Shown here in pieces: positions 11,741 through 57,357 of a DNA stretch of 64,000 bases; position 1 is the first letter of the stretch; each line of letters begins with the position of its first letter. The stretch is from Dehalococcoidia bacterium (GTDB lineage Bacteria; Chloroflexota; Dehalococcoidia; UBA2979): contig CBDBMD010000003.1 of assembly GCA_965207415.1 (NCBI GenBank), positions 2,480,991-2,544,990 on the forward strand, written 5' to 3'. The position numbers were made by a program, and so were the translations under genes. The notes under the pieces were generated by a model. It was not told the DNA's origin. It did no database searches and worked only from the letters and a program-made list of their open reading frames with translations.

Positions 11741-11752
11741 TGCGGCTTCGGG

Positions 11753-12358
11753 TTACCCGTCGCTCGGCGAGGTGAGCACGCCCGAGCGGGCGCGGCGCGC
11801 GCGGCCGTGCCTGGCCAGCGCGCGGGCGAACTCGGCGAGCCGCTCCTGCGCCCAGACGTGGTAGTGCCGCCAGGTGTCCGCCCCGCCGACGTTCACGCGG
11901 TTGACCGCGAACGAGGCCCACTCCAGCGCCGCGTAGGCGCCCGCCCCCGTCGCCACGAGGTCATCGAGCGCGGGAGGCAGCGTGCTGCCGACCTCGTCGA
12001 GCGTGTGCAGCTTCGAGTAGTGGACCGTGACCGCCTCGTCCCCGTCCGGCGGCGCGCCGACCTGCAACGTCAGCGTGTCGCCCCAGAGCGAGAACGGCGG
12101 CCGCGAGGGCGGGTACAGCCCGACCGGGTACTCGACAGCGTCGACGCTGACGCGGTCGGTCAGGGCCGCGACGCTGAGGTCGCGGCTGCCGGCGACCGTC
12201 CGCAGCGCCGCGCTCGTCTCGAGCGGCGCGGCGAGCGAGAGCTCGCGGACGGCGCGCTCGATGTGCCGGTCGAGCGCCTCGTCGGGCCAGCGCTCGTTCG
12301 CCGGGTCGGTGTCGCGGAGGTCGCGGCGCAGCCGCGCGCGCATCGACGGCAGGTCCAT
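11753..12358 (-). CDS. phage gp6-like head-tail connector domain protein (about 201 aa)
   Basis: N-terminal MRARLRRDLRDTDPANERWPDEALDRHIERAVRELS resembles the gp6-like head-tail connector motif (by analogy, from memory, with K/RAHLRIDxDDDDALIxxLIxAAR). Start MDLPSM at 12358 is preceded by GAGGAAGAG. Confidence 0.4.
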   Translation of the reverse strand: MDLPSMRARLRRDLRDTDPANERWPDEALDRHIERAVRELSLAAPLETSAALRTVAGSRDLSVAALTDRVSVDAVEYPVGLYPPSRPPFSLWGDTLTLQVGAPPDGDEAVTVHYSKLHTLDEVGSTLPPALDDLVATGAGAYAALEWASFAVNRVNVGGADTWRHYHVWAQERLAEFARALARHGRARRARSGVLTSPSDG

Positions 12359-12469
12359 CTCTTCCTCGATTCGGGCTGGGGAGACCGGGGGTTGGCGGAG
12401 AGGGGTTGGGGAGGAGGGCGGCCGCCCGGCGCCGGCCGGACGGGCCGCCCTCGTGCTCACGGAGTCTGG

Positions 12470-13360
12470 CTAGGGGCGGACGCCGCTGAGCTTCGCGAGC
12501 TTGAGCTCGTTGAAGAGCGCCACGGAGACGTACCACTTGACCCGCACGCGAGTCGCGTCCTTCGTCTCCAGCGCACCGACGCGCTCGATCGTCAGCCCGC
12601 CGGGCGCGGTCAGCCCGGCCACGGCGCCCTCGCCGAACTGCAGGGCGTAGACCGTCGAGGTGTCCTCGGACGTGCCCGTGGTGTCGTCGTCGGCGATGTG
12701 GTCGTTCACGCCGATCGGGATGCCGTCGTAGAAGGCGACCATGCGGCCGAACTCGTCGCGGTCGTGCTCGACGACGCCGCCGCCCGCCGCACGCGCGAGC
12801 TTGTTGAGCGCCCGCCGCGAGCGGCGCGACATCAGCAACATTTCCGGCTTCCCGCCCCGCACCGTATCGATCAGCTCGTCGAGCTTGTCGAGGGTGAGCG
12901 TCGCGCCGTTCGCGCCCATCGAGACCGTCTGCGCCGCCGGGCACAGCTCGTCGAGGCCGTCGAACGACTTCGCATCGCTGCTCGTGTCGCCATTGATGAA
13001 CGTGTCGTCGAACTTCTGCTGGACGGACTTCGCCTTGAGCGCGACGACCGCCGCCTCGATGTCCTGCACGTTGTTGCGGGTGCGGGCGATGTAGTTGTCG
13101 ATGTCCGCGTCGCCGCCGAGGATCGTCAGCGCGGTCGTGATCTGCGTGAACGTCGGCGTGTCCTCGGACCAGGTGTCGCCCACCGAGTAGAAGCCGGCCG
13201 AGGCCGAGAGCTTCTCGCGGTTGTAGGTGAGGCCATTGCCGACGATCTCGATGAACGGCAGCCGCTGCAGGATCGGGCTGTCGTAGATCACCGTCTCGAT
13301 CACGCCCTCGAGCAGGACGTCGTTCGAGAGCTTCGCGCCTTCGGTCAGGGTCAGTGCCAT
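12470..13360 (-). CDS. phage major capsid protein (HK97-fold-like)
   Basis: 296 aa beginning MALTLTEGAKLSNDVLLEGVIETVIYDSPILQRLPFIEIVGNGLTYNRE. I recall this N-terminal pattern from proteins annotated as phage major capsid proteins in high-GC Gram-positive genomes. A scaffold-like gene lies immediately upstream. Confidence 0.55.
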   Translation of the reverse strand: MALTLTEGAKLSNDVLLEGVIETVIYDSPILQRLPFIEIVGNGLTYNREKLSASAGFYSVGDTWSEDTPTFTQITTALTILGGDADIDNYIARTRNNVQDIEAAVVALKAKSVQQKFDDTFINGDTSSDAKSFDGLDELCPAAQTVSMGANGATLTLDKLDELIDTVRGGKPEMLLMSRRSRRALNKLARAAGGGVVEHDRDEFGRMVAFYDGIPIGVNDHIADDDTTGTSEDTSTVYALQFGEGAVAGLTAPGGLTIERVGALETKDATRVRVKWYVSVALFNELKLAKLSGVRP

Positions 13361-13476
13361 CGTGTCGTGTTCCGTTCCTTCCGGCGCGCGCCGCGCGCCT
13401 TGCTCGCCATTGCCGCGGGCACGCTAGAGGCGTGCGCGCGCTGCTCCGAGGGCCATGTGGCAGCGCTCGCCGCCGG

Positions 13477-33496: not shown

Positions 33497-34507
<1,011 letters not shown>

Positions 34508-34509
34508 CC

Positions 34510-35484
34510 ATGCGCGCACGCCTGCTCGGCCTGCTGCGCGGCGGGGCGAGGGGGCCCCGCGATCAGCCCGATCCGCGCGCCGAACCCCCCGCCGGCGACG
34601 GCGCGCCACCACTCCCGCCGCGACTGCTCGCCTCCGCGCGGCGCCTCGAGATCCGCGCCCGCCGCCTCGTCACGAGCGAGCTCGGCGGCGAGTACCGCAG
34701 CACCTTCCGCGGCGCCGGCATCGAGTTCGCCGAGGCTCGCGAGTACGTCCCCGGCGACGACGTGCGCCGCATCGACTGGAACGTCACCGCTCGCATGGGC
34801 GCGCCGTGGGTCAAGGAGTACGTCGAAGAGCGCGAGCTGCACCTCCTCTGCGCCGTCGACGTCTCCGCCTCGCAGCTGGCCGGGCGGCCCGTCCTCGGCC
34901 GCCGCGCGGCCGCGGCCGAGGTCTGCGCGCTGGTCACGCTGGCCGCCGCCTACAGCCACGACCGGACCGGCCTGCTCACCTTCAGCGACCGCATCGAGCG
35001 CTACGTGCCGCCCGCCAAGGGCGCGCGCCACGCGATGCGGCTCGTGCGCGAGGTGCTGCAACCGGACCAGCCACAACCGACCACCTCGATCGCCACGGCC
35101 TGCGATTACCTCGTGCGCGTGCTGCGCCGCCGCTCCACCGTCTTCCTCATCTCGGACTTCATCGACGACGGCTACGAGCGCCCGCTGCGCGACCTGGCCC
35201 GCCGCCACGAGCTGATTGCCGTCGTGGTCGTGGACCCGCTCGACGAGGCGCTGCCGGACGCCGGCATCGTCGAAGTCGAGGACGTCGAGCGCGGGGGCCG
35301 GCTGCTGATCGACAGCTCCGACGATGGTCTGCGCCGGCGCTACGCCGAGGCGGCCGCGGAGCGGCGGGAGCGGCGCGCCGCCACCCTGCGGCGCGCGGGC
35401 GTCGAGGAGCTGATCGTGCGCACCGATGGCGACGCCGCCGAGCCGGTGCTTGAGTACTTCCGCCGCCGGAGCCGCCGCACATGA
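34510..35484 (+). CDS. DUF58 domain protein (MoxR partner, VWA-like)
   Basis: Conserved FAEAREYVPGDDVRRIDWNVTAR and HLLCAVDVSASQ segments. Start overlaps the moxR stop. Confidence 0.8.
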   Translation: MRARLLGLLRGGARGPRDQPDPRAEPPAGDGAPPLPPRLLASARRLEIRARRLVTSELGGEYRSTFRGAGIEFAEAREYVPGDDVRRIDWNVTARMGAPWVKEYVEERELHLLCAVDVSASQLAGRPVLGRRAAAAEVCALVTLAAAYSHDRTGLLTFSDRIERYVPPAKGARHAMRLVREVLQPDQPQPTTSIATACDYLVRVLRRRSTVFLISDFIDDGYERPLRDLARRHELIAVVVVDPLDEALPDAGIVEVEDVERGGRLLIDSSDDGLRRRYAEAAAERRERRAATLRRAGVEELIVRTDGDAAEPVLEYFRRRSRRT

Positions 35485-36500
35485 CGCGCGCACAGCGGCG
35501 CGCAGGGCTGGCGGTCGCGGTGCTGGCGCTGGCCGCCCTCGCGGTCCTCGGCGCGCTCGCCAGCTCACCGGCAGCGGCGCAGCGGGCGACGCCGCTGGAG
35601 CTGCGCGTCGATGTCACGCCGCGCACGGTGACCCTCGGCGATCGGGTGCGGATCACGGTCATCGCGACGCACACGGAGCCGCTCCTGATCACGGCCGACC
35701 CGCCGTCGCGCGGAGACGTGCTGCAACTGATCGAGGCGCTCCCCGCGGAGACCGTCACGCTGCCCGACGGTTCGCTGCAGACCGAAATCGCGTTCACCGT
35801 CGCCGCCTTCGCGCTCGGCCCGCAGGACGCCGGTCCCCTGCGCATCTTCTGGCTGCGGCAGGACGGCAGCTCCGGCGAGGCGCAGGCGATCCCGCCCACC
35901 TTCGAGGTCGCAAGCGCACTCCTCGATGACTCCGGGGCGCTGCGGCCGCTGAAGCCGCAGGCGGCGTTCGGCGAGCCGCCTCCCGCCTGGGTGCGGCCCG
36001 CGATCGTCGCCGGCGCGCTGCTCGCGCTTGCGCTCCTCGCGGCGGTCGCCGTGGGCTGGCTGCGGCGCCGTGCCCCGGCGCCCGCGCCGCCTCCCGAGCA
36101 GCACGAGCTCGCACCCGAGACCGCCGCGCGGCGGCGGCTCGAGGAGCTGGCCGGAAGCGGCGCGCTCGCGCGCGGCGAGTACGAGCGCTTCTACGGCACG
36201 CTCTCCGTGGTGCTGCGCAACTACCTGGAGGCGCGCTTCGAGTTCAACGCCACGGCGCTCACCACGCCGGAGCTGGACCGCTCGATGGGCGGTTACGGGA
36301 TCGAGCGCTGGCAGGCGCGCCTCGCCGGCGGGCTGCTGGAACGCTGCGACGCCGCCGTCTACGCGGGCCGCCATCCCGATCTCGGCTCCGCCGACCACGA
36401 CCTGACCGTGGCTTTCGAGATCATCGACCTCTCGCGTACGGGACCACCCGCCGGCGTCGGCGCGTACGGCGGACCCGGTCCGGCAACGAGGCGGCCATGA
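35481..36500 (+). CDS. membrane protein of the Bat operon (signal peptide + extracytoplasmic domain + TM + DUF4381-like cytoplasmic tail)
   Basis: N-terminal signal/TM, a central TM helix PAIVAGALLALALLAAVAVGWL, then a helical tail (ARRRLEELAGSG...YERFYGTLSVVLRNYLE) resembling DUF4381. 4-nt overlaps with both neighbours. Confidence 0.45.
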   Translation: MTRAQRRAGLAVAVLALAALAVLGALASSPAAAQRATPLELRVDVTPRTVTLGDRVRITVIATHTEPLLITADPPSRGDVLQLIEALPAETVTLPDGSLQTEIAFTVAAFALGPQDAGPLRIFWLRQDGSSGEAQAIPPTFEVASALLDDSGALRPLKPQAAFGEPPPAWVRPAIVAGALLALALLAAVAVGWLRRRAPAPAPPPEQHELAPETAARRRLEELAGSGALARGEYERFYGTLSVVLRNYLEARFEFNATALTTPELDRSMGGYGIERWQARLAGGLLERCDAAVYAGRHPDLGSADHDLTVAFEIIDLSRTGPPAGVGAYGGPGPATRRP

Positions 36501-37447
36501 GCTTCGCGAGCCCCTGGCTGTTGCTCCTGCTCCCCCTTGCCGGGCTGCTGCTGCTCGCCCCCATACTGCTCCGGCCGCGCCGGCCCCGGCTCGCCGTCGC
36601 CGACCTCGCGCTGCTGAGCGCGGCCGCCGCCCCCAGCTGGCGGCTGCGGCTGCGCTGGCTGCCCTGGCTGCTGCGCGCCGCCGCCATCGCGTTGCTGATC
36701 TTCGCCGCCGCTCGCCCCCAGCGCGGCCTCGCCCTCACCACGCTGCCCGAGGACGGCATCGACATCGTCGTCGTCCTCGATGTCTCCGGCTCGATGAGCC
36801 AGCTCGCCGAGCCCGGCCGCAACGCGCCCAGCAAGCTCGAGGCCGCGCAGGAGGTCATCGGCGAGTTCATCGAGAGCCTCGAGGGCGACCGCATCGGCCT
36901 CGTCGCCTTCCAGTCGCGCGCGATCCTGCTCTCCCCGCTCACGCTCGACCACGACGCGCTCGGCCGGCAGGTCGACGCCGCCGAGTCCGGACTGATCCCG
37001 GACGGCACGGCGATCGGGCTCGGCATCGCGGAGGCGCTCAACCTGCTGCGGGAGTCGCCGGCGCGAAGCCGCATCGCGGTGCTGCTGACCGACGGCGAGA
37101 ACAACCAGGGCGAGGTGCCGCCGATGCAGGCAGCGAGGATCGCGGAGACGCTCGGCATCCGCATCTACACGATCGGCCTCCACGGCGCCGCGCGCGGCGG
37201 CAGCCAGGTCGACGTGCGGTTGCTGCAGCAGATCGCCGCCGTGACCGACGCCGGCTACTTCGACGCCGCCACCCAGGTCGAGCTCTCCGAGGCCTACCGC
37301 GAGGTCCGCCGGCTTGAACGCAGCCGCGTGGGCGAGCGGCGCTTCACCGAGTTCCACGAGTACGGACCGCTGCTCGCGGTCGCCGCGCTGCTGCTGCTGG
37401 CCGCGGAGGTAGGCCTGCGCGCGACCGTCTTCAGGAGATACCCGTGA
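36497..37447 (+). CDS. VWA-domain membrane protein BatA-like
   Basis: Two N-terminal TM helices, a VWA MIDAS motif DIVVVLDVSGSMS and a C-terminal TM helix. Confidence 0.8.
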   Translation: MSFASPWLLLLLPLAGLLLLAPILLRPRRPRLAVADLALLSAAAAPSWRLRLRWLPWLLRAAAIALLIFAAARPQRGLALTTLPEDGIDIVVVLDVSGSMSQLAEPGRNAPSKLEAAQEVIGEFIESLEGDRIGLVAFQSRAILLSPLTLDHDALGRQVDAAESGLIPDGTAIGLGIAEALNLLRESPARSRIAVLLTDGENNQGEVPPMQAARIAETLGIRIYTIGLHGAARGGSQVDVRLLQQIAAVTDAGYFDAATQVELSEAYREVRRLERSRVGERRFTEFHEYGPLLAVAALLLLAAEVGLRATVFRRYP

Positions 37448-39315
37448 TTGGCCTGGCCGACCCGCTGGCGCTGCTCTGGCTGGCAATCCTGCTGCCGGTG
37501 CTGTTCGCGACCTCCTACGCCACGCGGCGGCGGCGCGAGGCGGACGATGCGTTCGGCGGCGGCACGGCGCTGCGTCGTGGGCGCGTCGAGTGGCGACGCC
37601 CGCTGCAGCAGCTGCTGCTGCTCGCCGCGATCGTGCTGGTCGTGATCGCCGTCGCGCGTCCGCAGTGGGGCGAGGAGGAGCGGCCGCTGACCCGGCTCGG
37701 CATCGACGTCGCGGTCGCCCTCGATGTCTCGCGCTCGATGACCGCGAGCGACATCGCGCCCTCGCGCGCCGACGCGGCCGCGGCCGCGCTCGACCAGCTC
37801 TTCAACCACCTGCGCGGCGATCGCGTCGGCCTCGTGACGTTCGCCGGCGACGCGTTCGAGCGGTCCCCGCTCACCCTCGACCTCGATGCGGTGCGCCAGC
37901 TGGTCGCGCGCGCGCAGGAGGAGCAGGCCTTCGTGCGGCCCGGGACGGACCTCGGCGGCGCGCTCGAGGCGGCGCTGCGCCTGCTCGACATCGAGGATCC
38001 CGCCGAGACGCAGGTGATCGTACTGATCTCGGACGGCGAGGACCTCGCCGAGGATCTCGGAGACGCCCTCGAGGAAGCAGAGGACGCCGGCGTCCGCGTC
38101 TTCACCGTCGCCGCCGGGACACCCGACGGGGGGACGATGGCCGCACGCGAGAGCGGCGACGAGGGCGCGCCCACCGTGCGCCGCCCGGCGGGCGACGAAC
38201 TGAGCCGCGCGGACCGGCCCACGCTCCAGCGCATCGCCGACGCAACCGGCGGCGACCTGCGCGAGCTGGGCGAACTGCCCGGACTCGCCGTGGAGTTCCA
38301 GCGGCTCCGGCAATCCGCTTTCGACCAGGGCGCGAACCGCGCGCCCGTCGAGCGCTTCCAGTGGTTCCTCGGCGGCGCGCTGCTGCTGCTCGTCCTCCAG
38401 GCGCTCGCCGCCGACGGCAGCTGGCAGCGGCGCCTCGGCGTTGGCCGCCTCACCCTCGCCGCCTCCACGCTGCCGGCGATCGCGCTGATCGTCGCCTGCG
38501 CCAGCGCCGAGTACGCGGCCACCGAGGACGGCCACGACGCCTACGCCGCCGGCCGCTACGACGACGCCCTCGCCTCCTATCGCGACGCCGAGGCGGTCGC
38601 GCCGGAGGCCCCGGAGCCGCCCTACAACATCGGCAACACGCTGCACCAACTCGGCCGTTACGAGGAGGCGACGGTCGCCTCGTCGACGGCGATGAGCGCC
38701 GCCCTCGATCCGCTGCTGTTCACTCGCGCGGCCTACGCCCTCGGCAGCCACGCCTTCCGCCGCAACGACCTCGAGGCCGCCCGCGACGCCTGGATCAGCG
38801 TGCTGTTGCGCGACCCCTCGGACCTCGACGCAAAGCACAACCTCGAGCTGACGCTGAGCCTCCTCGCCGGCCCCGAGGAGACGCCCGCGCCCACGCCTCC
38901 CGCCGGCGGCGGCGACGGGGAGGGCCAGGGCGAGGGCGAGGGGGGTACGGGGGACGAGGAGCCGCCTCCCGACGACGCCAGCCCCGACCAGTCCGGTGAG
39001 GGCGGCGGCCAGCCGCAGCCCGGCCCGACACCCGACGCGACCCCGGAGCGCAACGGCGCCGGCGATTCGCCGCCGCCCTCGGACCCCGCGGACTCGGGCG
39101 GCTCACCGGCGGGCGGGCCGGGCGCGCAGGTGGAGCAAGAGCAACCCCCGACGCTCGACGATGCGCGCGCGCTGCTCGCCGAAGAGGCGCTGCGGATCGG
39201 CGACGAGGCGCTGACCATCGAGGACGCGATCGCCCTGCTGGAGCTGGTGCGCCGCACGAGTGAGCTCGAGGCGCTGGCGCCGCGCGGCGTGGCCGGCGGA
39301 CCCGGGGACCGCTAG
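37444..39315 (+). CDS. VWA domain + TPR repeat protein (BatB/BatC-like fusion) with Pro/Gly/Glu-rich low-complexity C-terminal region
   Basis: VWA MIDAS motif DVAVALDVSRSMT, a TM helix, TPR-like repeats (AYAAGRYDDALASYRDA, YNIGNTLHQLGRYEEA), then a PAPTPPAGGGDGEGQGEGEGG acidic linker. Confidence 0.7.
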   Translation: MIGLADPLALLWLAILLPVLFATSYATRRRREADDAFGGGTALRRGRVEWRRPLQQLLLLAAIVLVVIAVARPQWGEEERPLTRLGIDVAVALDVSRSMTASDIAPSRADAAAAALDQLFNHLRGDRVGLVTFAGDAFERSPLTLDLDAVRQLVARAQEEQAFVRPGTDLGGALEAALRLLDIEDPAETQVIVLISDGEDLAEDLGDALEEAEDAGVRVFTVAAGTPDGGTMAARESGDEGAPTVRRPAGDELSRADRPTLQRIADATGGDLRELGELPGLAVEFQRLRQSAFDQGANRAPVERFQWFLGGALLLLVLQALAADGSWQRRLGVGRLTLAASTLPAIALIVACASAEYAATEDGHDAYAAGRYDDALASYRDAEAVAPEAPEPPYNIGNTLHQLGRYEEATVASSTAMSAALDPLLFTRAAYALGSHAFRRNDLEAARDAWISVLLRDPSDLDAKHNLELTLSLLAGPEETPAPTPPAGGGDGEGQGEGEGGTGDEEPPPDDASPDQSGEGGGQPQPGPTPDATPERNGAGDSPPPSDPADSGGSPAGGPGAQVEQEQPPTLDDARALLAEEALRIGDEALTIEDAIALLELVRRTSELEALAPRGVAGGPGDR

Positions 39316-39319
39316 AGAC

Positions 39320-41728
39320 TCAGCGTGCGAGGCGGCGCAGCCACAGGCGGCGCAGCAGCAGCTCCCGGAAGAGCCGGTTGCGCAGGCGGCGGTAGAGCGC
39401 GTCGGCGCGGCGCACCGCCGGATCGTCCTCGTCACCCTCGTCCGTCGCCGGCGCCCGATCGGCGGCGGCGGCAGGCGCGCCGTAGCGCTCGCGCGTGAAG
39501 GCATCGGCGAGGATCTCGACGGGCTCCTCGCTCTCGAGGTCGCGCTTCAGTCCGGCGGCGGCCTCGAGCGGCGTGCGGTTGGTGGGGGCCGGGATGCCCG
39601 CCCAGCCGGAGATCCGCTGCACCCTGGCCCAGCGCGCCGTGGCCGGGCTCAGCCCTCGATCGGGGAAGGCCCACGCTCCGCGCACGATCAAGAAGAGCAT
39701 GGCGACAACAGCGAGCGCGGCTATCGCCCAGCCCGCGATCAGCCCGAGCGGCGCCCAGAGCGATCCGTCACCGCCGATGAGGTCTCCCCGAGGTCCGCCC
39801 ACGCCCAGCGGTTCCAGACTCTGCTCCAGCAGTTCCGCCAGCTCCAGCGCCGCGATCGCGTCCTCGGTGCTGCCCTCCGGAACTTCGAAGATGCCGGTTC
39901 CTCGCCCGGTCCGGCTAACCAGCTCGCGGACCGGCGCCGGGTTGAACTCCACCCAGCCGTAGCCGGGGAAGAAGACCTCCGGCCACGCCCACGAGTCCTT
40001 CTCGCTCAGCACGAACGCCTCCGACTCCCGGCTGAACGAGGTCGAGTCGAGCGCGAATCCGACGGCAATGCGCGCGGGGATGCCGAGCGTGCGCAGCAGC
40101 ACCACCATCGCCGAGGCGTGATGGTCGAAGTAGCCCTCGCGGCTCTCGAAGAGGAACCAGTCAATCGGATCGCGGCGCGGAGGCGGGTCCGAAACCTTCA
40201 GGCTGAACGGGTAGTTCTCGCGCAGGTAGCGCTCGACCCGGAAGGCGGCGAGGTATGGGGCATCCTGCTCCGTTGCGATGCTCGCGGCCAGTTCACCCAC
40301 CCGAGGCGGAAGATTGTCGGGTATCTGGAGATAGCGCTCCGTCACCCAGGCCGGGTAGTCGGCGCCCGCGGCCATGAGCGCGTCCACGCCCGCGACGGAG
40401 ATGGAGCCCACCGCCGTGTAGCTCTCCCCGTTGCCGACACGGCTGCTCGGCTGGAGTCCGACCACGTCGCTGGGCGAGGCTCCCGTCAGGAACTCGGCCT
40501 CGACATCGGTCGCGAGCGGCTCGCCGACCGTCAGCAGACGGCGATCGCTGAGCGGCGACTCAACGTGGACCTCGACGGCCACGAGGCTCCGCTGCTGCGC
40601 CCTCGTCGCGGGCGTGCCGAAGCGCGCCGCCTCGACCGTGATCGCCGGCGGGTCGACCAGCTCGGTGTCGGAGAGCCGCCAGCCACCGCGTTCGTAGCGA
40701 TCGAAGACGTAGGCACGCAGGTACGCGAGGCCCCCTGTCTCGGCGGAGACGACGTACATCGTCTCGTCGTCGAGGTTGACGCGGCCCTGCAGCGGCAGGG
40801 CGCCCTCGAACTGGTGGATCAGCTGTCCGTGCTTGCCGTCGATCCCGATGAAGACCTGCCCGAGCGGCTGGATGCGATCGGTGATCGGGCGGACCGCGTT
40901 GCCCCATGCCCCGGCTGCGGGTTCCCAGCCGTCGCCGACAGGCACGATCCAGGCGAAGAGGATCAGCCCCGCCGCCACCCACCCGCCGGCGTGCAGCACC
41001 TGCAGCGAGAGCCAGCGAGGCAGCGCGATCGCCTGGCCTCGCCAGCCGCGAACCGTGCGCAACAGGTGGATGCGCGTGAACAGCAGGATCGCCGCGAAGA
41101 GGAAGATCACGAATTCGAAGGCCGGCTTGCCCGGCAGGTAGGAGATGTTCGTCAGCAGCGCGAACCCGCCCGGCAGCAGCGCCAGCCAGGGGTTGCGCCA
41201 GCGGAACACCGCCCAGGACGCGAGGTACGGGACGAGCCAGACGGCGAAGACCAGCAGCAAGACGAACGGCAACGGGTCCGTGGAGACGCCGCCCGTGACG
41301 AGCGCGCCCAGCCAGTCGCCCATCCGGCCCCACAGATCGCCCCAGCGCGTCGCGATCCCGAGCCCCGGCGCAAACGGGTCGGAGAGCTCCATCGTGTGCA
41401 TCACCATCGCCGTCGACGTCACGACGCCGAGGGCGCCGCCAGCGAGGAACGCCGTCCATGGCCGCGTCCCCAGCAGCGCCAGCAGCGCGCCGGCTGCAAG
41501 CCCGATCGCGGCCGCCACCGGCAGCGCTGGCATCTCGTCGACCCAGTTCGCGCGAGCAATCGAGAAGGCCACGGAGAACTGGGCGATCGCGAGCAGCGCG
41601 AAACTGATCCAGTCTTCCCAGAAGCGCCAGGCCGTCACGCTGCGCGGATCGGCTTCGGCCAGCAGATCGCGCAAGGCGCGGGAACTGAACCCCGCCTGCG
41701 CCGGAGTGCTGTCGGAGAGGGCGCTCAT
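39320..41728 (-). CDS. transglutaminase-like (TgpA/DUF3488-type) polytopic membrane protein, apparently catalytically inactive
   Basis: 802 aa. N-terminal multi-TM DUF3488-like region, a transglutaminase-core-like segment REGYFDHHASAMVVLLRTLGIPARIAVGF, and DSWAWPEVFFPGYGWVEFNPAP. Relative to the canonical C/H/D triad motifs (from memory) all three positions read F/W/N. C-terminal TM helix plus basic tail. Confidence 0.7.
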   Translation of the reverse strand: MSALSDSTPAQAGFSSRALRDLLAEADPRSVTAWRFWEDWISFALLAIAQFSVAFSIARANWVDEMPALPVAAAIGLAAGALLALLGTRPWTAFLAGGALGVVTSTAMVMHTMELSDPFAPGLGIATRWGDLWGRMGDWLGALVTGGVSTDPLPFVLLLVFAVWLVPYLASWAVFRWRNPWLALLPGGFALLTNISYLPGKPAFEFVIFLFAAILLFTRIHLLRTVRGWRGQAIALPRWLSLQVLHAGGWVAAGLILFAWIVPVGDGWEPAAGAWGNAVRPITDRIQPLGQVFIGIDGKHGQLIHQFEGALPLQGRVNLDDETMYVVSAETGGLAYLRAYVFDRYERGGWRLSDTELVDPPAITVEAARFGTPATRAQQRSLVAVEVHVESPLSDRRLLTVGEPLATDVEAEFLTGASPSDVVGLQPSSRVGNGESYTAVGSISVAGVDALMAAGADYPAWVTERYLQIPDNLPPRVGELAASIATEQDAPYLAAFRVERYLRENYPFSLKVSDPPPRRDPIDWFLFESREGYFDHHASAMVVLLRTLGIPARIAVGFALDSTSFSRESEAFVLSEKDSWAWPEVFFPGYGWVEFNPAPVRELVSRTGRGTGIFEVPEGSTEDAIAALELAELLEQSLEPLGVGGPRGDLIGGDGSLWAPLGLIAGWAIAALAVVAMLFLIVRGAWAFPDRGLSPATARWARVQRISGWAGIPAPTNRTPLEAAAGLKRDLESEEPVEILADAFTRERYGAPAAAADRAPATDEGDEDDPAVRRADALYRRLRNRLFRELLLRRLWLRRLAR

Positions 41729-42981
41729 GTGTAGACGCCCCCTCGATCGCCGACGCCGACGGACGAGAGCACCTGCACGAGGTCGTCCTGGCGCTTCACG
41801 GTGTAGGTGTAGACGCCGCTCGAGGCGAGCGTGCCGTAGACATCGAGCGAGCTGGTCGTCGCGCCGAACGTCTCACCCTCGAGCAGCACCGCCGCGACTT
41901 TCACCCCGCGCGCGGAGAGCGACATCAGCGCCAGCGCCCAGTCGTCGCGCGGCGAGGGCGTCACGGCGATCACGGTGGTGTGCCGCCCGAACTTGCGGGA
42001 CTCCTCGAGCAGCAACTGTGCGAGCGAGACGTCGCCCACGGCACGGGCCAGCGCCAGCAGCTCCAGCAGGCGCGTGTAGTGGTTGCCGCCGCGGCTCGGA
42101 TCGTTGACGCGCAGGTCGTCGTCGTAGGCGATCATGCCGACGGAGCGGTTCTGGGTGATGAAGTAGCGCGCGATCGAGGCGGCGACCATCACGGCCGCCT
42201 CCTCGGTGCCGTCGTCGTCCTCGCCGGTGTGGACCGCCTCCTCGAGGTCGAGCAGGACCCAGATGTCGGAGGCGGGATCGAGCTCGAAGAGCTTCACCAT
42301 CAGGTTGCCGGTGCGGGCGGTGGCCGGCCAGTGCACGCGGCTGAGCGAGTCGCCCGCCTCGTAGGCGCGCAGGCCGGCGACGTTGGGCGTGACGTTGTGC
42401 GTGCGCCTGCGGAAGCGCCCGTCTCCCGGCAGGTTCGCCGGCGGCACGTGCAGCCTCGGCAGCTCGGGTGCGCTCGGGTAGACGAGCACCTCCGAGCGCT
42501 CGCCGAAGGTGCGCGACATACGGAAGAACCCGAACGGGTCCGTCGCCGTCACCGTCACCGGGCCCAGCTCGTAGAGCCCGCGCCGCCGCGCCGCCGTCTC
42601 GTAGCGCCAGACGTCGACCCCGCGCCGGCCGAGCGTGAGCACCCGGTTCGTCACATGGTCCGGCAACGTCGAGTGGTCATGGACCTCGAGCCAGACCTTG
42701 GGCAGCCAGGAGCGGGAGCGCACAATCACGCGCCCGTGAAAGGCCCGCCCGCGCGAGACGCGCTGGTCGCGGCGCCGCACCTCCACCTCGATGCCGCGGA
42801 TCATCGAGCGGTTCCAGAAGTAGAGCAGCGGGATCGCGAGCGCGATCAGGTAGGCGAAGCGGAACAGCAGCCAGAACCCGGTGGCGCTGGCGACGGCGAG
42901 GGTGAAGAGCGCGACGGCAATCGCCGCCGCCACGTTGGGCCGGCGCGCGGCGAGGCTTGCGGCCCGCCACAGCGCGCTCAT
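41725..42981 (-). CDS. DUF58 domain protein (second copy, MoxR partner)
   Basis: Two N-terminal TM helices and a conserved LRAYEAGDSLSRVHWPATARTG segment (equivalent to DDxRxIDW). Stop overlaps the downstream transglutaminase-like start (ATGA). Confidence 0.75.
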   Translation of the reverse strand: MSALWRAASLAARRPNVAAAIAVALFTLAVASATGFWLLFRFAYLIALAIPLLYFWNRSMIRGIEVEVRRRDQRVSRGRAFHGRVIVRSRSWLPKVWLEVHDHSTLPDHVTNRVLTLGRRGVDVWRYETAARRRGLYELGPVTVTATDPFGFFRMSRTFGERSEVLVYPSAPELPRLHVPPANLPGDGRFRRRTHNVTPNVAGLRAYEAGDSLSRVHWPATARTGNLMVKLFELDPASDIWVLLDLEEAVHTGEDDDGTEEAAVMVAASIARYFITQNRSVGMIAYDDDLRVNDPSRGGNHYTRLLELLALARAVGDVSLAQLLLEESRKFGRHTTVIAVTPSPRDDWALALMSLSARGVKVAAVLLEGETFGATTSSLDVYGTLASSGVYTYTVKRQDDLVQVLSSVGVGDRGGVYT

Positions 42982-42984
42982 GGC

Positions 42985-43980
42985 TCAGGCGCCGCCGCGC
43001 GCCCGCGCACCCGGCACCGGCGTGCGCTCGATGCACTCGTCGACAATCTGCGCGCTCTCGATGTTCCGCACGCGCGCGGCCGGGCTCACGATCACGCGGT
43101 GCCCCAGCGTCGGGTAGGCCAGCCGCTTGATGTCGTCGGGCTGCACGAAGTCGCGCCCGTCGAGCATGGCGTAGGCCTGCGCGGCCCGCATCAGCGCCAG
43201 CGACCCGCGCGGCGAGGCGCCCAGGTAGACGCTCTCGTGCTCCCGCGTCGCGTTCACCATCGTCACGATGTACTGCTTGATCAGCGGGTCGATGTAGACC
43301 CCGCGCGTGGCCTGCTGCAACTCGATCACCTCCTCGGCGGAAGTGACCTGGTCGAGCGATTCGATCGGGTGCTGCTCTTGCTGCGCGTCCATCACCAGCA
43401 CCTCGTCGGTGGGGTTCGGATAGCCGAGGCGGACACGCATCAGGAAGCGGTCGAGTTGCGCCTCGGGCAGCGGGAACGTGCCCTCGTACTCGATCGGGTT
43501 CTGCGTGGCGAGGACCATGAACGGCTCGGGCAGCTTGCGCGTCACGCCGTCGACGGTGGCCTGGCGCTCCTCCATCGCCTCCAGCAGTGCGGACTGGGTC
43601 TTCGGCGTGGCGCGGTTGATCTCGTCCGTGAGCACGATCTGCGACATCACCGGGCCGGGCCGGAATTCGAACTCGCTACTCGCCTGGTTGTATACCGCAA
43701 CGCCCGTCACGTCCGAGGGCAGCAGGTCCGGCGTGAACTGGATGCGCTGGAAGCTGCACCCCGTCGAGCGCGCGAGCGCCCTCGCCAGCATCGTCTTGCC
43801 AACACCGGGGACGTCCTCGAGCAGCAGGTGCCCCCGGCAGAGCAGTGTGACGAGCGCGAGGCGCCCCTCCTCTGCTTTGCCGATGATCACGCGTTCGATG
43901 TTTTCGAGGATGCGCTCGGAGACTTGGCGTGGATCTTCCACGTCGGCCCTCCCAACCCTTCGCGGCCGGGCTCGCCCCAT
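42985..43980 (-). CDS. MoxR-family AAA+ ATPase (second copy)
   Basis: Walker [27 protein letters not shown] and [28 protein letters not shown]. Start MGRARPRR at 43980 preferred over the track start at 44175. Confidence 0.85.
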
Positions 43981-44130: not shown

Positions 44131-45495
44131 GTGGCCGAAGACCAGACCCCTCCGCCTCGGCGCTCCGCGCGCCATGTCAGCGCCGCGAGCCTCCTGACCG
44201 CGGTGGTCGTGATGCTGCTCGTCGCCGCGGCCACCGCCGCACTGGTCCGTACCCTCAACGAGGAGCCTGCGGAACCGCCGGCGGTCCGGATCACTCCGCT
44301 CACCCGCACGGCCACCCCCGCCCCGACTCCGTCGCCATCGCCAACCCCGACGGCGACGCCGACCCCGGCCTCGACGCCTTCGCCCACACCGACACCCTCG
44401 CCATCGCCGACGGCTCCGCCGACGCCCTCACCAACACCGACAGCGACGCCGTCACCGACGCCAACGGCCACGCCCACACCGACCCCAACGCCTTCCCCCA
44501 CCCCTACTCCCACTCCCACTCCCACCCCTACTCCCACTCCCACTCCCACTCCCACCCCTACTCCCACTCCCACTCCCACTCCTACGCCGACACCCACGCC
44601 GACCCCAACACCCACGCCGACTCCAACCCCGACCCCGACACCAACCCCCGTCCCCGGCGAAGTTGCAGCGAACCCGGAGCGCGTCCAAACGGGCCACACC
44701 CTCGTCGTGCAGGCCTCCGCCGCCGGTTCCGTCCTGGCGCGGATCGAGTTCCGAGGCACCTCGTACTCCCTGGTGCCGGTCGCTGATGGGTTCTGGGGCG
44801 TCTTCGCGATCCCGGTGGACGCCGAACCGGGCGAGGAGTCCGTGCGCGTCACGTTCCACGACGCCAACCGCGCACAGATCAGCGAGGCGGACGCGACCTA
44901 CGTCGTGGTCGAGATACCACGGGACGTCGAGCACATCACGTTGTCGGAGGAGGCAGCGGCGCTCCTGAACGAGGAGGATGCTCAACGCGAGGCGGATCTG
45001 CGCGCCGAGCAGTTCGCGCAATCCGACCCCGATCCGGCGTGGACGGAGCCGTTCCTGCAACCCGTGCCCGACGCGCAGGTCACCGCACCGTTCGGCAGCG
45101 GCCGCTCCTACAACGGCGGCCCAGTGACCAGCTTCCACAGCGGCCTCGACTACGGCGGGAACGAGGGCGACCCGGTGCTGGCCGCCGCGCCAGGCCGCGT
45201 CAGCTGGACCGGCGCGATGCCGCTCCGCGGCAACAGCGTGATCATCGACCACGGCGCCGGCGTGAAGAGCGGCTACCACCACCTCTCACGCATCGACGTC
45301 GCCGTCGATGGCGCCGTGGCGGCGGGCGACCAGATCGGGGCGGTCGGCTCGACCGGCGTCTCAACCGGTCCACACCTGCACTGGGAGGTCAGCATTCACG
45401 GCGTGAACGTCGATCCGCTCGCCTGGCTCTTCAACTCGTTCCTGGCGAGCGGGGGCTTCAGCCCTCCAACGCAGCCAGAGTCAGAGCAAGAGTGA
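44131..45495 (+). CDS. M23 family metallopeptidase with N-terminal TM anchor and long Thr/Pro/Ser repeat linker
   Basis: M23 motifs HSGLDYGG and [15 protein letters not shown] helix [19 protein letters not shown], then about 110 aa of (PT)n/(TPS)n. Confidence 0.8.
44290..44650 (+). repeat. coding tandem repeat: (ACNCCN)n, including nested (ACTCCC)n / 24-30 nt units, encoding Pro-Thr repeats
   Basis: Direct inspection: cccacccctactcccactcccact repeated three times with internal ACTCCC hexamers (about 44505-44590), flanked by degenerate ACGCCGAC-type units. Confidence 0.8.
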
Positions 45496-54504: not shown

Positions 54505-55770
54505 TCAGGGCAGGTAGATCCTTGGGTTGCGGCGCACGCCGTTCAGCTCGACCTCGAAGTGCAGGTGCGGGCCCGTGGTGCGCCCGGTGAGGCCTGCGTA
54601 GCCGATGACCTGCCCCGCTTCCACCACTTCGCCGTGCTCGACGGCGAAGTTGCGCAGGTGTGCGTAGAGCGTCGCGAATCCGCCGCCGTGCGCGACCTTC
54701 ACATAGAGGCCGTAGGAGCAGCAGCGGTGACCGCCGACGAAGATCACCCTGCCGGCCGCCGCCGTCTTGATCGGGGTACCGACGGGGGCCTTGATGTCGA
54801 TCCCGAGCGGGTGGCTCGGACCGAAGTACGAGGTGATGATGTCCCGGGTGGGCCAGCCGAAGTCAGGCGAGACGATGCGCCCGCCGGGGACCAGAATCGT
54901 CGCCCCGGCCCGTACGGAACCGTCGCGCGGCAGGTCATTCGCCTCGATGATCTCCGCCACGTTGCCTTCGTAGCGCCTGGCGATCTCATCGAGGGTCTCG
55001 CCGCTGCGGATTTCGTGGATGATCCCGTCCACGCTCGGCACCCGCAGCACCTCGCCCACGCGGAGCAGGTCGGGCTCGTAGATGACGTCCATGTTGTTCC
55101 AGATGATGGATTTGGAGCGGATGCCGAAGCGCTGGGCGATGCCGCTGACCGTGTCGCCCTCGCGCACCTCGTAGCTGAGGAACAGCGAGCGCGGCTGCGC
55201 GTCCCACGCCAGAGCCACCAGCCCGGCCGACGCAGGAACAACCAGCCGGTTGGCCAGGTCCCCGGCATCGACATCCGGGAGGGAATCGCTCCGGGACCGG
55301 GTCACCGCCTCGTCCGGCGCGGGCTCCAGCTCGCTCGCGACCGGGGCGCCGGGCGATAGGGAACTCACGAGCGCCGGCCCGATGGGCGCGGGAGCGGACG
55401 GAGCCGGCGCGGCAAGCTGCTCCCAGGCCGGCGAGGCCGGCTGCCCCCAGGCCGCCGCGCCCGCCATGCCGGGCACCGCGATCTTCGCCGCCCTCAGGAC
55501 CGGCGTCTGAGCTGTGGATGTCACGGTGTCGGGGGGCCGGCCGACAGCGAGCACGACGAGCAAGATGAGCGTGACAACCGCCGCGAACAGCGCGGGCTGC
55601 GCCAGCGGGAGCCCTGGCGCGTCGCCGCCGGCAAGGCGCCGACGCTGGGCATACCCGAGTTCGCGCCCGCTCGTGGAAGGCGGACGCGGAAATCCGAGGC
55701 CGATGCTGCCGATGCCTCTTCCTCCTCCGGTCGGGGTGCGGCCACCCCCGCGCGCTGTGCCGCCAGCCAT
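54505..55770 (-). CDS. LysM-LysM-M23 peptidoglycan endopeptidase (paralog A), membrane anchored
   Basis: Two LysM repeats (YEVREGDTVSGIAQRFG; HEIRSGETLDEIARRY) and an M23 domain (GIDIKAPVGTPIKTAAAGRV, LYAHL, GPHLHFEV). N-terminal TM helix. Confidence 0.8.
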   Translation of the reverse strand: MAGGTARGGGRTPTGGGRGIGSIGLGFPRPPSTSGRELGYAQRRRLAGGDAPGLPLAQPALFAAVVTLILLVVLAVGRPPDTVTSTAQTPVLRAAKIAVPGMAGAAAWGQPASPAWEQLAAPAPSAPAPIGPALVSSLSPGAPVASELEPAPDEAVTRSRSDSLPDVDAGDLANRLVVPASAGLVALAWDAQPRSLFLSYEVREGDTVSGIAQRFGIRSKSIIWNNMDVIYEPDLLRVGEVLRVPSVDGIIHEIRSGETLDEIARRYEGNVAEIIEANDLPRDGSVRAGATILVPGGRIVSPDFGWPTRDIITSYFGPSHPLGIDIKAPVGTPIKTAAAGRVIFVGGHRCCSYGLYVKVAHGGGFATLYAHLRNFAVEHGEVVEAGQVIGYAGLTGRTTGPHLHFEVELNGVRRNPRIYLP

Positions 55771-55935
55771 CCGGGAATGGCGTTTTGCCCTAGAGGCACG
55801 CGGAATCCTAGCACGGCCTGCGCGCCGCTCGTCCCCGGCCGACTGTCACGCCGAGGGACCGTCAGGTCGATCGAGGAGCAGCGCGTCGTGCTGCCGGCGG
55901 CATCGCGCCGCGGGCGATCCTCCGAGGCGGTGTCG

Positions 55936-57237
55936 TCAGGGCAGGTAGATCATCGGGTTGCGGCGCACGCCGTTCAACTCGATCTCGAAGTGCAGGTGCG
56001 GGCCGGTGGTGCGTCCGGTGAGCCCGGCGAAGCCCAGGACGGTGCCCGCCGTGATCTCGTCGCCGCTCGCCACCGCAAAGCTTGCGAGGTGGGCGTACAG
56101 CGTCGTGAACCCGCCGTCGTGCTGCACCTCGACGTAGAGGCCGTAGGAGCAGCAGCGCGTGCCTCCCACGAAGATCACCGTGCCGTCCGCCGCCGCCTTG
56201 ATCGGCGTGCCCACCGGCGCCCGAATATCGATCCCCAGCGGGTGGCTGGGTCCGAAGTACGAGGTGATGATGTCCCGGGTGGGCCACACGAAGTTGAACG
56301 CCGAACTCGTCTGCGGCGCCGCGGCGACCGCGCTCGACGGCGCCGGTGTCGCTGCGGGAGCGGGACGGACCACGGCGGCTGGCCTCGCGACGATGCGCCC
56401 GCCGGGCACGAGAATCGTCGTGTCCGCGTAGATGCTGCCCTCCCGGTCCAGCCTGTTCACCTCGATGATGTCGACGATGCTGGCGTCGTAGCGCTCGGCG
56501 ATCTCGAGCAGCGTCTCGCCGTAGCGGACGCCGTGGAGGATGCCGCCCACGCTCGGCACCTGGATCTCATCTCCCACGTTGAGGAAATCCGCGTCGGGGA
56601 TGATGTCGATGTTGTTCCAGAGGATGTAGTTGGTGGCGATGCCGAAGCGTTCGGCGATCCCGAACACGGTATCGCCCTCCTGCACCTCGTAGCGGAAGAA
56701 CAGCGGGCGAGGCTGTGTCTCGCGTTCCTGGAGTTCGTCCTCGGCCGGCGCGGCCACGGCTACCCGCAACGCCGCTCTCGCGAGGTCGATCTCGGAAGCG
56801 GACTGATCTCCTGACGCGGCCGCCCGGGAAGAAGGCGTGTCGGCTCCCGGATACGTGAGCAGTGCGTTGACGAGCGGCGGCTCAATTCGCTCCGGGGCGG
56901 ACAGCGCCGGCGCCGCCGGCTGCTCCCAACTGGTTGCCCCGGCCATGCCGGGCAGCGAGATCTGAGCGGTCCTCAGTGCGGGATTCGGCTGCGTGGAAGT
57001 GACGGTCACCGGGAAGAACCCGGCGATCAAGACGAGGACGAGGACCAGGCCGACGAACGACGCGTACACCGCGGGCGGCGCCAGCGGCAGCCACGACAGG
57101 CCGGCGGCAGCGATCTGCCGCCGCTGCGACAACGGAAGCTCGCGCCCGGTTGGCGGGCGCGGTCGGGGGAGTACGGGGCCGATACTGTTGATGCGCGCCT
57201 CCTCCGGCCGGAGGCGACCACCCCCGGGGCCGCGCAA
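55936..57237 (-). CDS. LysM-LysM-M23 peptidoglycan endopeptidase (paralog B), membrane anchored
   Basis: Same architecture as paralog A. The 3' approximately 400 nt are nearly identical at DNA level to paralog A, with a Pro/Ala/Ser-rich linker inserted before M23. Confidence 0.8.
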   Translation of the reverse strand: MRGPGGGRLRPEEARINSIGPVLPRPRPPTGRELPLSQRRQIAAAGLSWLPLAPPAVYASFVGLVLVLVLIAGFFPVTVTSTQPNPALRTAQISLPGMAGATSWEQPAAPALSAPERIEPPLVNALLTYPGADTPSSRAAASGDQSASEIDLARAALRVAVAAPAEDELQERETQPRPLFFRYEVQEGDTVFGIAERFGIATNYILWNNIDIIPDADFLNVGDEIQVPSVGGILHGVRYGETLLEIAERYDASIVDIIEVNRLDREGSIYADTTILVPGGRIVARPAAVVRPAPAATPAPSSAVAAAPQTSSAFNFVWPTRDIITSYFGPSHPLGIDIRAPVGTPIKAAADGTVIFVGGTRCCSYGLYVEVQHDGGFTTLYAHLASFAVASGDEITAGTVLGFAGLTGRTTGPHLHFEIELNGVRRNPMIYLP

Positions 57238-57357
57238 ATCAACCGTTCAGGTAGCGATCTACCCGACGGGAAAACAGGATCTTAGCACGGACCAGATGAT
57301 GAGCCGCGACGCGGCGGGTGCGCGGGAAGTCGCGGGCGGTCCGCCCGGCCTTCCCGG

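Follow-up and report, generated by a model that had tools for sequence, protein, structure and literature searches.

Operons composed of moxR, a DUF58 gene and a gene of the TgpA/YebA type are very common in bacteria and archaea, and TgpA has been reported to be critical for the viability of Pseudomonas aeruginosa. One such operon, located in a 64,000-nucleotide (nt) stretch of DNA from a Dehalococcoidia bacterium (GenBank assembly GCA_965207415.1, contig CBDBMD010000003.1; the whole stretch is referred to as the window), was analyzed in this study. Its TgpA-like product carries Phe, Trp and Asn at the positions of the catalytic triad, and this replacement was found to be conserved throughout a clade of Dehalococcoidia. 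The closest known system is TgpA (PA2873) of P. aeruginosa, together with the three-gene MoxR-DUF58/vWA-YebA operon, in which YebA represents the transglutaminase-like (TGL) protein (Milani 2012, PMC3507681; Zhang and Aravind 2012, PMC3495828; structures 6g49 and 6g4h). Furthermore, inactive TGL domains have been documented as peptide binders or scaffolds (PMC3495828, PMC10318531), and EPB42 (erythrocyte protein 4.2), Cyk3, Rad4/XPC and CC2D2A have kept the transglutaminase/papain-like fold and a function while losing the catalytic residues (PMC3495828, PMC3386208, PMC10318531). These eukaryotic proteins, acting as membrane-associated scaffolds or peptide binders, represent independent losses in unrelated architectures, and none of them combines an integral membrane location with coupling to a MoxR AAA+ ATPase and a DUF58 protein. 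The operon type and inactive TGL domains are therefore already known, and the new part is the clade-wide swap within the MoxR-linked TgpA/YebA family. In the literature searched, no description was found of a clade-wide, coordinated active-site replacement in this bacterial family, nor any paper joining transglutaminase with Dehalococcoidia.

The operon consists of three tightly packed open reading frames (ORFs) on the minus strand, arranged in the order moxR-DUF58-TGL that characterizes TgpA/YebA-type operons, in a window with a G+C content of 70-75%:

42985-43980, minus strand: moxR, encoding a MoxR-family AAA+ ATPase of 331 amino acids (aa) (Pfam AAA_3, 4e-65; AAA_lid_2, 1e-25)
41725-42981, minus strand: gene for a DUF58 protein of 418 aa (Pfam DUF58, 4.7e-17; hydropathy)
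39320-41728, minus strand: gene for a TgpA/YebA-like pseudo-transglutaminase of 802 aa with zero cysteine residues (PF01841, 6g49 alignment, AlphaFold2, Foldseek)

The ORF list and the Pfam assignments (AAA_3/AAA_lid_2, DUF58, Transglut_core) agree with the three-gene operon that a sequence-only reading of this DNA had placed at these coordinates. The ATGA overlaps described in that reading were found at the DUF58/tgpA junction only (41725-41728), whereas the moxR/DUF58 junction reads TGA-gcc-ATG and contains a 3-nt spacer without overlap. The ATG at 43980 is the likely start of moxR and is preferred because extending the ORF to 44175 would create an overlap with the divergent M23 peptidase gene. 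A comparison with NCBIfam assigned no family to either the transglutaminase-like or the DUF58 protein.

Membership of the TgpA-like protein in the transglutaminase-like superfamily was evident from its match to Transglut_core (PF01841), which reached 78.6 bits against a gathering cut-off of 23 (E 5e-22) and extended from residue 480 to residue 597, covering model positions 3-108 of 108. A structure has been solved for one relative only, namely the periplasmic domain of P. aeruginosa TgpA (6g49), which was also the best sequence match of the window protein (E 3e-14, HMMER pairwise alignment). In this alignment, GYF(534)DHH pairs with GFCAHY of 6g49, DSW(580)AW with DAHAW, and EFN(596)P with SVDP, so that the catalytic Cys, His and Asp are replaced by Phe534, Trp580 and Asn596, respectively. 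The core and its diagnostic codons are located as follows:

39899-40336, minus strand: transglutaminase-like core, residues 465-610, Pfam match 480-597 (PF01841, 5e-22; 6g49 alignment; ratio of nonsynonymous to synonymous substitutions, dN/dS)
40127-40129, minus strand: Phe534 codon, catalytic Cys position, at the N-terminus of helix 534-547 (6g49 alignment, AlphaFold2, codon reading)
40118-40120, minus strand: His537 codon, Cys position +3, co-varying with the triad but not universal (class-wise column comparison)
39989-39991, minus strand: Trp580 codon, catalytic His position, on strand 579-587 (6g49 alignment, AlphaFold2, codon reading)
39941-39943, minus strand: Asn596 codon, catalytic Asp/Glu position (6g49 alignment, codon reading)

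The substitution of all three triad positions, claimed previously in the sequence-only reading, was thus recovered in the alignment to TgpA and within a PF01841 match spanning the whole model; only the reading of the His position within SWAW needed adjustment, the replacing residue being Trp580 and the quoted Ser preceding it. Accordingly, the Cys-His-Asp/Glu triad of active transglutaminases and TGL cysteine peptidases is absent. Independently of any alignment, the 802-aa protein is free of cysteine, as are 112 of the 120 homologues considered below. As judged from its sequence, the TgpA-like protein cannot perform Cys-dependent transamidation, deamidation or proteolysis, because the nucleophile is gone and no Cys occurs anywhere in the protein. 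By the same token, more than 200 genome annotations reading 'transglutaminase-like putative cysteine protease' would be wrong with regard to activity.

To describe the distribution of the replacement, 120 homologues with identities of 97-42%, all originating from Chloroflexota/Dehalococcoidia metagenome bins, were retrieved and aligned with MAFFT. The combination Phe-Trp-Asn was present in 117 of them, embedded in the highly conserved motifs GYFDHHAS, WAWPEV and GWVEFNPTP. A scan restricted to one genome per species yielded 215 relatives, the best 79 of which, all loci of Chloroflexota metagenome-assembled genomes (MAGs), were examined together with 10-kb flanks. Non-catalytic residues were found in all 78 complete cores among these best 79 loci, with Phe or Ser at the Cys position, Trp, Phe or Tyr at the His position and Asn or Ser at the acid position; residue 537 was His in 47 of the 78 and Phe or Tyr elsewhere. 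Chance can be excluded, given the recurrence of the same substitutions in 117 of the 120 homologues and throughout the 78 complete cores. Altogether, about 200 independent assemblies displayed the same substituted residues.

When representatives of 50%-identity clusters were searched exhaustively, 29,872 relatives were obtained, and the nearest 150 were classified by their site residues: 64 were Cys-His-Glu, 3 Cys-His-Asp, 30 Ser-His-Glu/Asp and about 55 of an aromatic type, the latter comprising Phe-Trp-Asn (16), Phe-Tyr-Asn (16), Phe-Phe-Asn (7) and others. A column-by-column comparison of the pseudo cores with the Cys-His-Glu cores revealed that only five positions switch. Position 534 is Phe in 88% of the pseudo clade versus Cys in 100% of the canonical relatives; position 537 is His in 77% of the pseudo representatives versus Tyr or Phe; position 580 is Trp, Tyr or Phe in 99% (35/35/29) versus His in 100%; position 596 is Asn (88%) or Ser (12%) versus Glu in 98%; and position 563, Gly in 72% of the canonical relatives, is variable in the pseudo clade. 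The core scaffold (G532, R546, P551, R553, G557, W582, E584, G591, W592, F595 and P597) is conserved equally in the Cys-His-Glu relatives. Compared to the eukaryotic inactive TGL proteins, the window clade is marked not by the loss of Cys alone but by a coordinated, conserved four-residue swap to aromatic residues and Asn. In a neighbour-joining tree calculated with the four variable site columns masked, one pure clade held 44 of 50 aromatic-type cores, with Phe-Trp-Asn forming a subclade within it, and a single origin of the aromatic-type site is likely on this basis.

The dN/dS values (Nei-Gojobori) of the window gene against six close orthologues ranged between 0.11 and 0.22 for the transglutaminase-like core and between 0.17 and 0.26 for the whole gene, and the core value was equal to or below the whole-gene value in five of the six comparisons. 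The replacement of the triad is a maintained state under purifying selection and not erosion. The window protein, a homologue of an enzyme family whose catalytic residues have been lost under continued purifying selection, represents a pseudoenzyme in the accepted sense.

Some further variants of the site were seen among the relatives. The Ser-His-Glu/Asp class (30 of the nearest 150 representatives; P0151, P0155, P0161, P0166 and others) also resides in MoxR-DUF58 operons (locus L084) and could comprise either serine-nucleophile variants or another inactive class. One relative, P0260, is of the Tyr-Tyr-Asp type. Six giant proteins of 2,000-3,100 aa (P0172, P0176, P0202, P0203, P0249 and P0266) contain three to five tandem transglutaminase-like cores, the N-terminal copies being degenerate (Ser-His-Asp, Gly-His-Asp, Ser-Ser-Asp) and the C-terminal copies intact (Cys-His-Glu/Asp). 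The titles of several MAG records carrying the pseudo gene read 'Thermoflexus hugenholtzii JAD2' or 'Dehalococcoides mccartyi' (loci L025, L038, L067, L072 and L079); these names are probably wrong, as the genes look like ordinary members of the Dehalococcoidia family. Two of these loci (L067 and L072) lie in the same MAG, CAMDAY01, which suggests a mixed bin or a duplication.

The fold of the protein was predicted with AlphaFold2 on the basis of a 72-sequence alignment. The model obtained a mean predicted local distance difference test (pLDDT) score of 81, with values above 90 in the transglutaminase-like domain. F534 is placed at the N-terminus of helix 534-547, W580 on strand 579-587 and N596 after strand 591-594; this predicted arrangement, with a helix bearing the nucleophile position and a sheet bearing the His and acid positions, is the canonical papain-like layout. 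The best Foldseek matches were 6g4h and 6g49 (E 3.5e-13, TM-score 0.73 over 293 columns), making TgpA the closest structural match as well, and EPB42 appeared among the weak matches. Beyond the core, the following regions were delimited:

40943-41617, minus strand: N-terminal polytopic membrane domain, residues ~38-262, with ~7 transmembrane helices (AlphaFold2 helices, hydropathy, class-wise conservation)
40337-40831, minus strand: predicted extracytoplasmic beta-rich domain preceding the core, residues ~300-464 (AlphaFold2 strands, pLDDT ~90; Foldseek alignment)
39659-39754, minus strand: last transmembrane helix, residues 659-690, predicted to lead the chain back to the cytoplasm (AlphaFold2 helix; hydropathy 2.72)
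39323-39658, minus strand: Arg-rich, predicted cytoplasmic helical tail, residues 691-802, DUF4129-like (weak DUF4129 match, charge, invariant columns)

Hence, a polytopic N-terminal domain, a TGL domain between the penultimate and the last transmembrane helix and a C-terminal tail, as deduced from the model and from hydropathy, are common to TgpA and the window protein, which is about 120 residues longer. The two differ in their sites, TgpA having Cys-His-Asp and measurable in-vitro transglutaminase activity, compared to Phe-Trp-Asn and zero Cys as read from the window sequence. Charge and hydropathy along the chain delineate ~7 transmembrane helices, a short Arg-rich loop (224-239), a net-acidic domain of 400 residues, the last transmembrane helix and an Arg/Lys-rich tail; by the positive-inside rule and by homology to the periplasmic domain of TgpA, the transglutaminase-like domain is predicted to be extracytoplasmic and the tail cytoplasmic. 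Within the membrane domain, W62, R135, D151, F155, W172, R176, W181, N194 and P263 are conserved in the pseudo, the Cys-His-Glu and the Ser-His-Glu classes, and this conservation across all three site classes suggests a family-wide function of the membrane domain. The tail contains residues invariant among close homologues (W700, T719, R748 and Y749), and 23 Lys and Arg residues were counted within 683-802; it is a candidate contact for DUF58 and MoxR. The DUF4129 match of the window protein is weak (20.3 bits, below the cut-off of 24.8), and PF13559 is recorded on many homologues. Likewise, PF11992 is recorded for many homologues in precomputed Pfam annotations, and no match to it was obtained for the window protein at E<=0.01.

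Another residue, His305 (40814-40816), shows no variation among close homologues; 85% of the pseudo-clade representatives have His here, whereas the position is occupied by Ser, Asp or Ala in Cys-His-Glu relatives. It is located in a low-confidence loop just past the last of the N-terminal transmembrane helices, where the alignment is uncertain.

The partner proteins were inspected in the same way. MoxR possesses the AAA_3 core and the AAA lid with intact Walker A (GVGKT), Walker B (DEINR) and sensor (ATQNP) motifs, as expected for a MoxR AAA+ ATPase. For the DUF58 protein, hydropathy and charge predict a membrane hairpin of two helices at the N-terminus and, after it, a cytoplasmic DUF58/VWA-like body. 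The DxSxS position of its metal ion-dependent adhesion site (MIDAS) reads DLEEA, indicating that a functional MIDAS is absent. The loss of the MIDAS was considered as a trait of the pseudo clade and rejected, as the DUF58 proteins of Cys-His-Glu and Ser-His-Glu operons also lack DxSxS; all compared DUF58 proteins of transglutaminase operons, catalytic or pseudo (window, L080, L081 and L084), do so. The window operon thus shares with TgpA-type operons both the gene order and a DUF58 protein of the same MIDAS-less subtype, for which ligand binding by way of a metal site is improbable. Instead, members of this subtype share an LD(L/A/G)x5(G/A)Gx4(S/G)TEE stretch.

MoxR and DUF58 genes were found upstream of the pseudo-transglutaminase gene in 70 of 71 related loci. 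The same three-gene operon also occurs in the nearest canonical relatives, represented by P0177 (Cys-His-Glu) and P0158 (Cys-His-Glu, from a Chloroflexi MAG), as well as by P0151 (Ser-His-Glu). In the genome of P0158, the operon adjoins dnaE, as it does in the window if the CLC and Bat genes lying in between are disregarded. The pseudo gene is probably orthologous to the catalytic gene, as opposed to being an additional copy, because the canonical gene holds the same operon and, in one case, also the dnaE-linked position. Within the 64-kb window and the 79 loci with 10-kb flanks, whole genomes not having been scanned, no intact transglutaminase paralogue was detected. A search starting from P0158, the nearest Cys-His-Glu protein, gave 36 matches only, none of them sharing a contig, and carries no weight either way.

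With conservation extending to the replacement residues and an undamaged scaffold around the cleft, a pseudo-transglutaminase is the most economical reading of this protein. This had been anticipated in the sequence-only reading, and the lack of Cys, the kept fold, purifying selection and clade-wide substitutions bear it out, just as the ~7 helices, the last transmembrane helix (AlphaFold2, hydropathy) and the kept operon partners bear out the polytopic membrane scaffold that was proposed along with it. We consider it reasonably probable that the protein has been selected to bind, rather than to modify, a ligand of the cell envelope. In such a scheme, a TgpA/YebA-type protein of the Dehalococcoidia would have had its Cys, His and Glu replaced by Phe, Trp and Asn, often along with Tyr by His at the Cys +3 position, while the polytopic membrane domain, the putative extracytoplasmic TGL domain, the cytoplasmic tail and the MoxR-DUF58 partners were all retained. 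The remodelled cleft of aromatic residues and Asn would then bind an envelope peptide or side chain at the outward-facing side of the membrane without turnover, and the membrane-anchored cytoplasmic DUF58 protein and MoxR would act on the cytoplasmic or membrane parts of the protein, presumably as in the catalytic relatives. Ligand binding is proposed here by analogy with the eukaryotic inactive TGL proteins. Several points weigh against the binding proposal: we know of no ligand for catalytic TgpA itself; the neighbour-joining tree pointing to a single origin was calculated without support values; chemistry of another kind through the conserved polar residues D535, E584 and H305 would still be conceivable; and the topology was assigned by a hydropathy and charge heuristic combined with homology. 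Published placements of the domain also disagree, a cytoplasmic transglutaminase-like loop having been predicted for the family (PMC3495828) and a periplasmic location, together with in-vitro activity, reported for TgpA (PMC3507681); the charge distribution observed here favours the outside.

The genomic context of the operon also enters into the choice between explanations. In contrast to tgpA, the Dehalococcoidia gene is flanked by a convergent operon that resembles the Bat (Bacteroides aerotolerance) operons, both containing moxR, DUF58, BatA- and BatB-type VWA genes and TPR repeats:

33497-39315, plus strand: convergent Bat/aerotolerance-like second MoxR system (Pfam), composed of the next five genes
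33497-34507, plus strand: moxR of the Bat-like operon
34510-35484, plus strand: DUF58 gene of the Bat-like operon, with an intact DVSAS MIDAS
35481-36500, plus strand: gene for a bitopic membrane protein of the Bat-like operon
36497-37447, plus strand: BatA-VWA
37444-39315, plus strand: BatB-VWA-TPR

This neighbour lies on the opposite strand as an operon in its own right, encoding a further MoxR and a further DUF58 protein, and the described Bat operons contain no transglutaminase-like protein. In the Dehalococcoidia loci, BatB was found adjacent in 64 of 68 cases and the full operon in 56 of 60. A Bat operon also lies beside a distant gene of the Phe-Tyr-Asn type and is absent beside another gene of this type (P0142) and beside three canonical relatives. 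Bat adjacency as a strict correlate of triad loss was consequently rejected, given the P0142 locus without Bat and the synteny of the flanking housekeeping genes. A DUF4129-like module shared by the transglutaminase tail and the Bat-operon membrane protein was rejected as well (hhalign probability 0.5%).

Of the alternatives to a binding pseudoenzyme, the view that the gene is decaying, or that sequencing artefacts or misalignment are involved and nothing functional lies behind it, can draw on the absent catalytic residues and on nothing else. It is refuted by the present data and its probability is practically negligible, since the 802-codon ORF is intact, the dN/dS values are low both overall (0.17-0.26) and in the core (0.11-0.22), the same residues recur across the independent assemblies, the Pfam model is matched over its full length with a confident structure prediction, and the absence of Cys does not depend on an alignment. 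It is more difficult to dismiss that the protein is still an enzyme, D535, H536/H537, E584 or H305 providing a non-thiol chemistry such as hydrolysis or glycan/lipid modification at the outer face. The replacement residues are conserved and not random, His at Cys +3 co-varies with the switch, His305 prevails in the pseudo representatives and not in the Cys-His-Glu relatives, and the Ser-His-Glu sister class shows that the family explores other site chemistries. However, Phe, Trp and Asn offer neither a nucleophile nor a general base, the His position swaps freely among Trp, Tyr and Phe, which fits packing or stacking better than catalysis, and H305 lies in the poorly modelled loop mentioned above. 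His537 as a new catalytic residue is weakened by its restriction to 47 of the 78 genome loci, with Phe or Tyr in the others. A new active site of this kind is in our opinion very unlikely.

It was also suggested in the sequence-only reading that the dead protein might serve as a docking platform for MoxR/VWA proteins. This idea finds only partial support. Such partners would have to be docked by the cytoplasmic tail or loops, since the transglutaminase-like domain is predicted to be outside and MoxR and both DUF58 proteins, that of the Bat-like operon included, to be inside, on the opposite side of the membrane. Furthermore, there is little to suggest that docking follows from the triad loss, because canonical relatives in the same operon share the tail and the loops. 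In an extended form, the ectodomain would engage the VWA/TPR proteins BatA and BatB and thereby join both MoxR systems. This is consistent with the frequent retention of the Bat-like operon beside the pseudo operon, with its presence next to the distant Phe-Tyr-Asn-type member and its absence beside the three canonical relatives, and with the BatA and BatB VWA domains, whose charge pattern places them outside, on the same side as the transglutaminase-like domain, and which both keep the DxSxS MIDAS. Against this stand the Phe-Tyr-Asn-type locus without a Bat neighbour, the missing profile similarity between the two tails, and the fact that the link is drawn from synteny, which prmA, rsmE, dnaE and CLC also exhibit, so that adjacency may reflect vertical inheritance alone. 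We regard docking, simple or extended, as unlikely. Pseudoenzymes commonly regulate active paralogues, and Cys-His-Glu relatives exist in Chloroflexota; the protein might accordingly regulate a paralogue with an intact catalytic site at some other place in the genome. The searched window and loci (not whole genomes) contained no second transglutaminase-like core, however, and the shared operon and, once, dnaE-linked position point to an orthologue and not to an added copy, which renders this explanation highly improbable. As regards the binding pseudo-transglutaminase, a bolder version may be formulated, in which the Phe/Trp/Asn cleft, often including His at Cys +3, is the repurposed extracytoplasmic ligand pocket of a receptor or anchor that is read or reset from the cytoplasmic side by DUF58 and MoxR and, in Dehalococcoidia, forms one envelope-maintenance machine with BatA and BatB. 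This version is speculative, and we consider it doubtful at present.

A whole bacterial class that keeps the module and at the same time replaces every catalytic residue constitutes a natural experiment. From the conservation patterns described above, the module probably needs no transglutaminase or protease chemistry, at least in Dehalococcoidia. The question whether a catalytically dead TgpA still supports function becomes testable in this way, and the residues for 'resurrection' and 'killing' mutants are defined. If the receptor or anchor version were true, catalysis would have no part in the ancestral and conserved role of the widespread MoxR-DUF58-TgpA module.

The other flank of the operon is occupied by a peptidase gene, and the same position upstream is taken by an M23 gene in 51 of 63 related loci:

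44131-45495, plus strand: divergent M23 peptidase with a long Pro-Thr (PTPTPT...) repeat linker (Pfam Peptidase_M23, 1.3e-27)

Downstream of the hrcA-dnaK cluster, a tandem pair of paralogous genes (54505-57246, minus strand) encodes LysM-M23 peptidases of 446 and 436 aa. It is very likely, as far as gene content can tell, that the organism has a peptidoglycan envelope, because three M23 peptidase genes lie in the window, and the products of two contain LysM domains. For the same reason, a loss of catalysis brought about by a loss of peptidoglycan, as in Dehalococcoides, is unsupported.

The wider window represents core chromosome, with genes for SecA, ClpB, RuvB, DnaE, Rho and CTP synthase and an hrcA-grpE-dnaK-dnaJ-prmA-rsmE cluster. 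Among these housekeeping genes, a 317-aa protein with an HK97-type capsid fold (Pfam Phage_capsid, 1.8e-9) is encoded at 12470-13423 on the minus strand. Its neighbours are located at 11753-12469 and 9771-11960, an adjacent 729-aa ORF is without a Pfam match, and no other phage genes were recognized nearby; the capsid-fold protein could be an encapsulin shell accompanied by its cargo genes.

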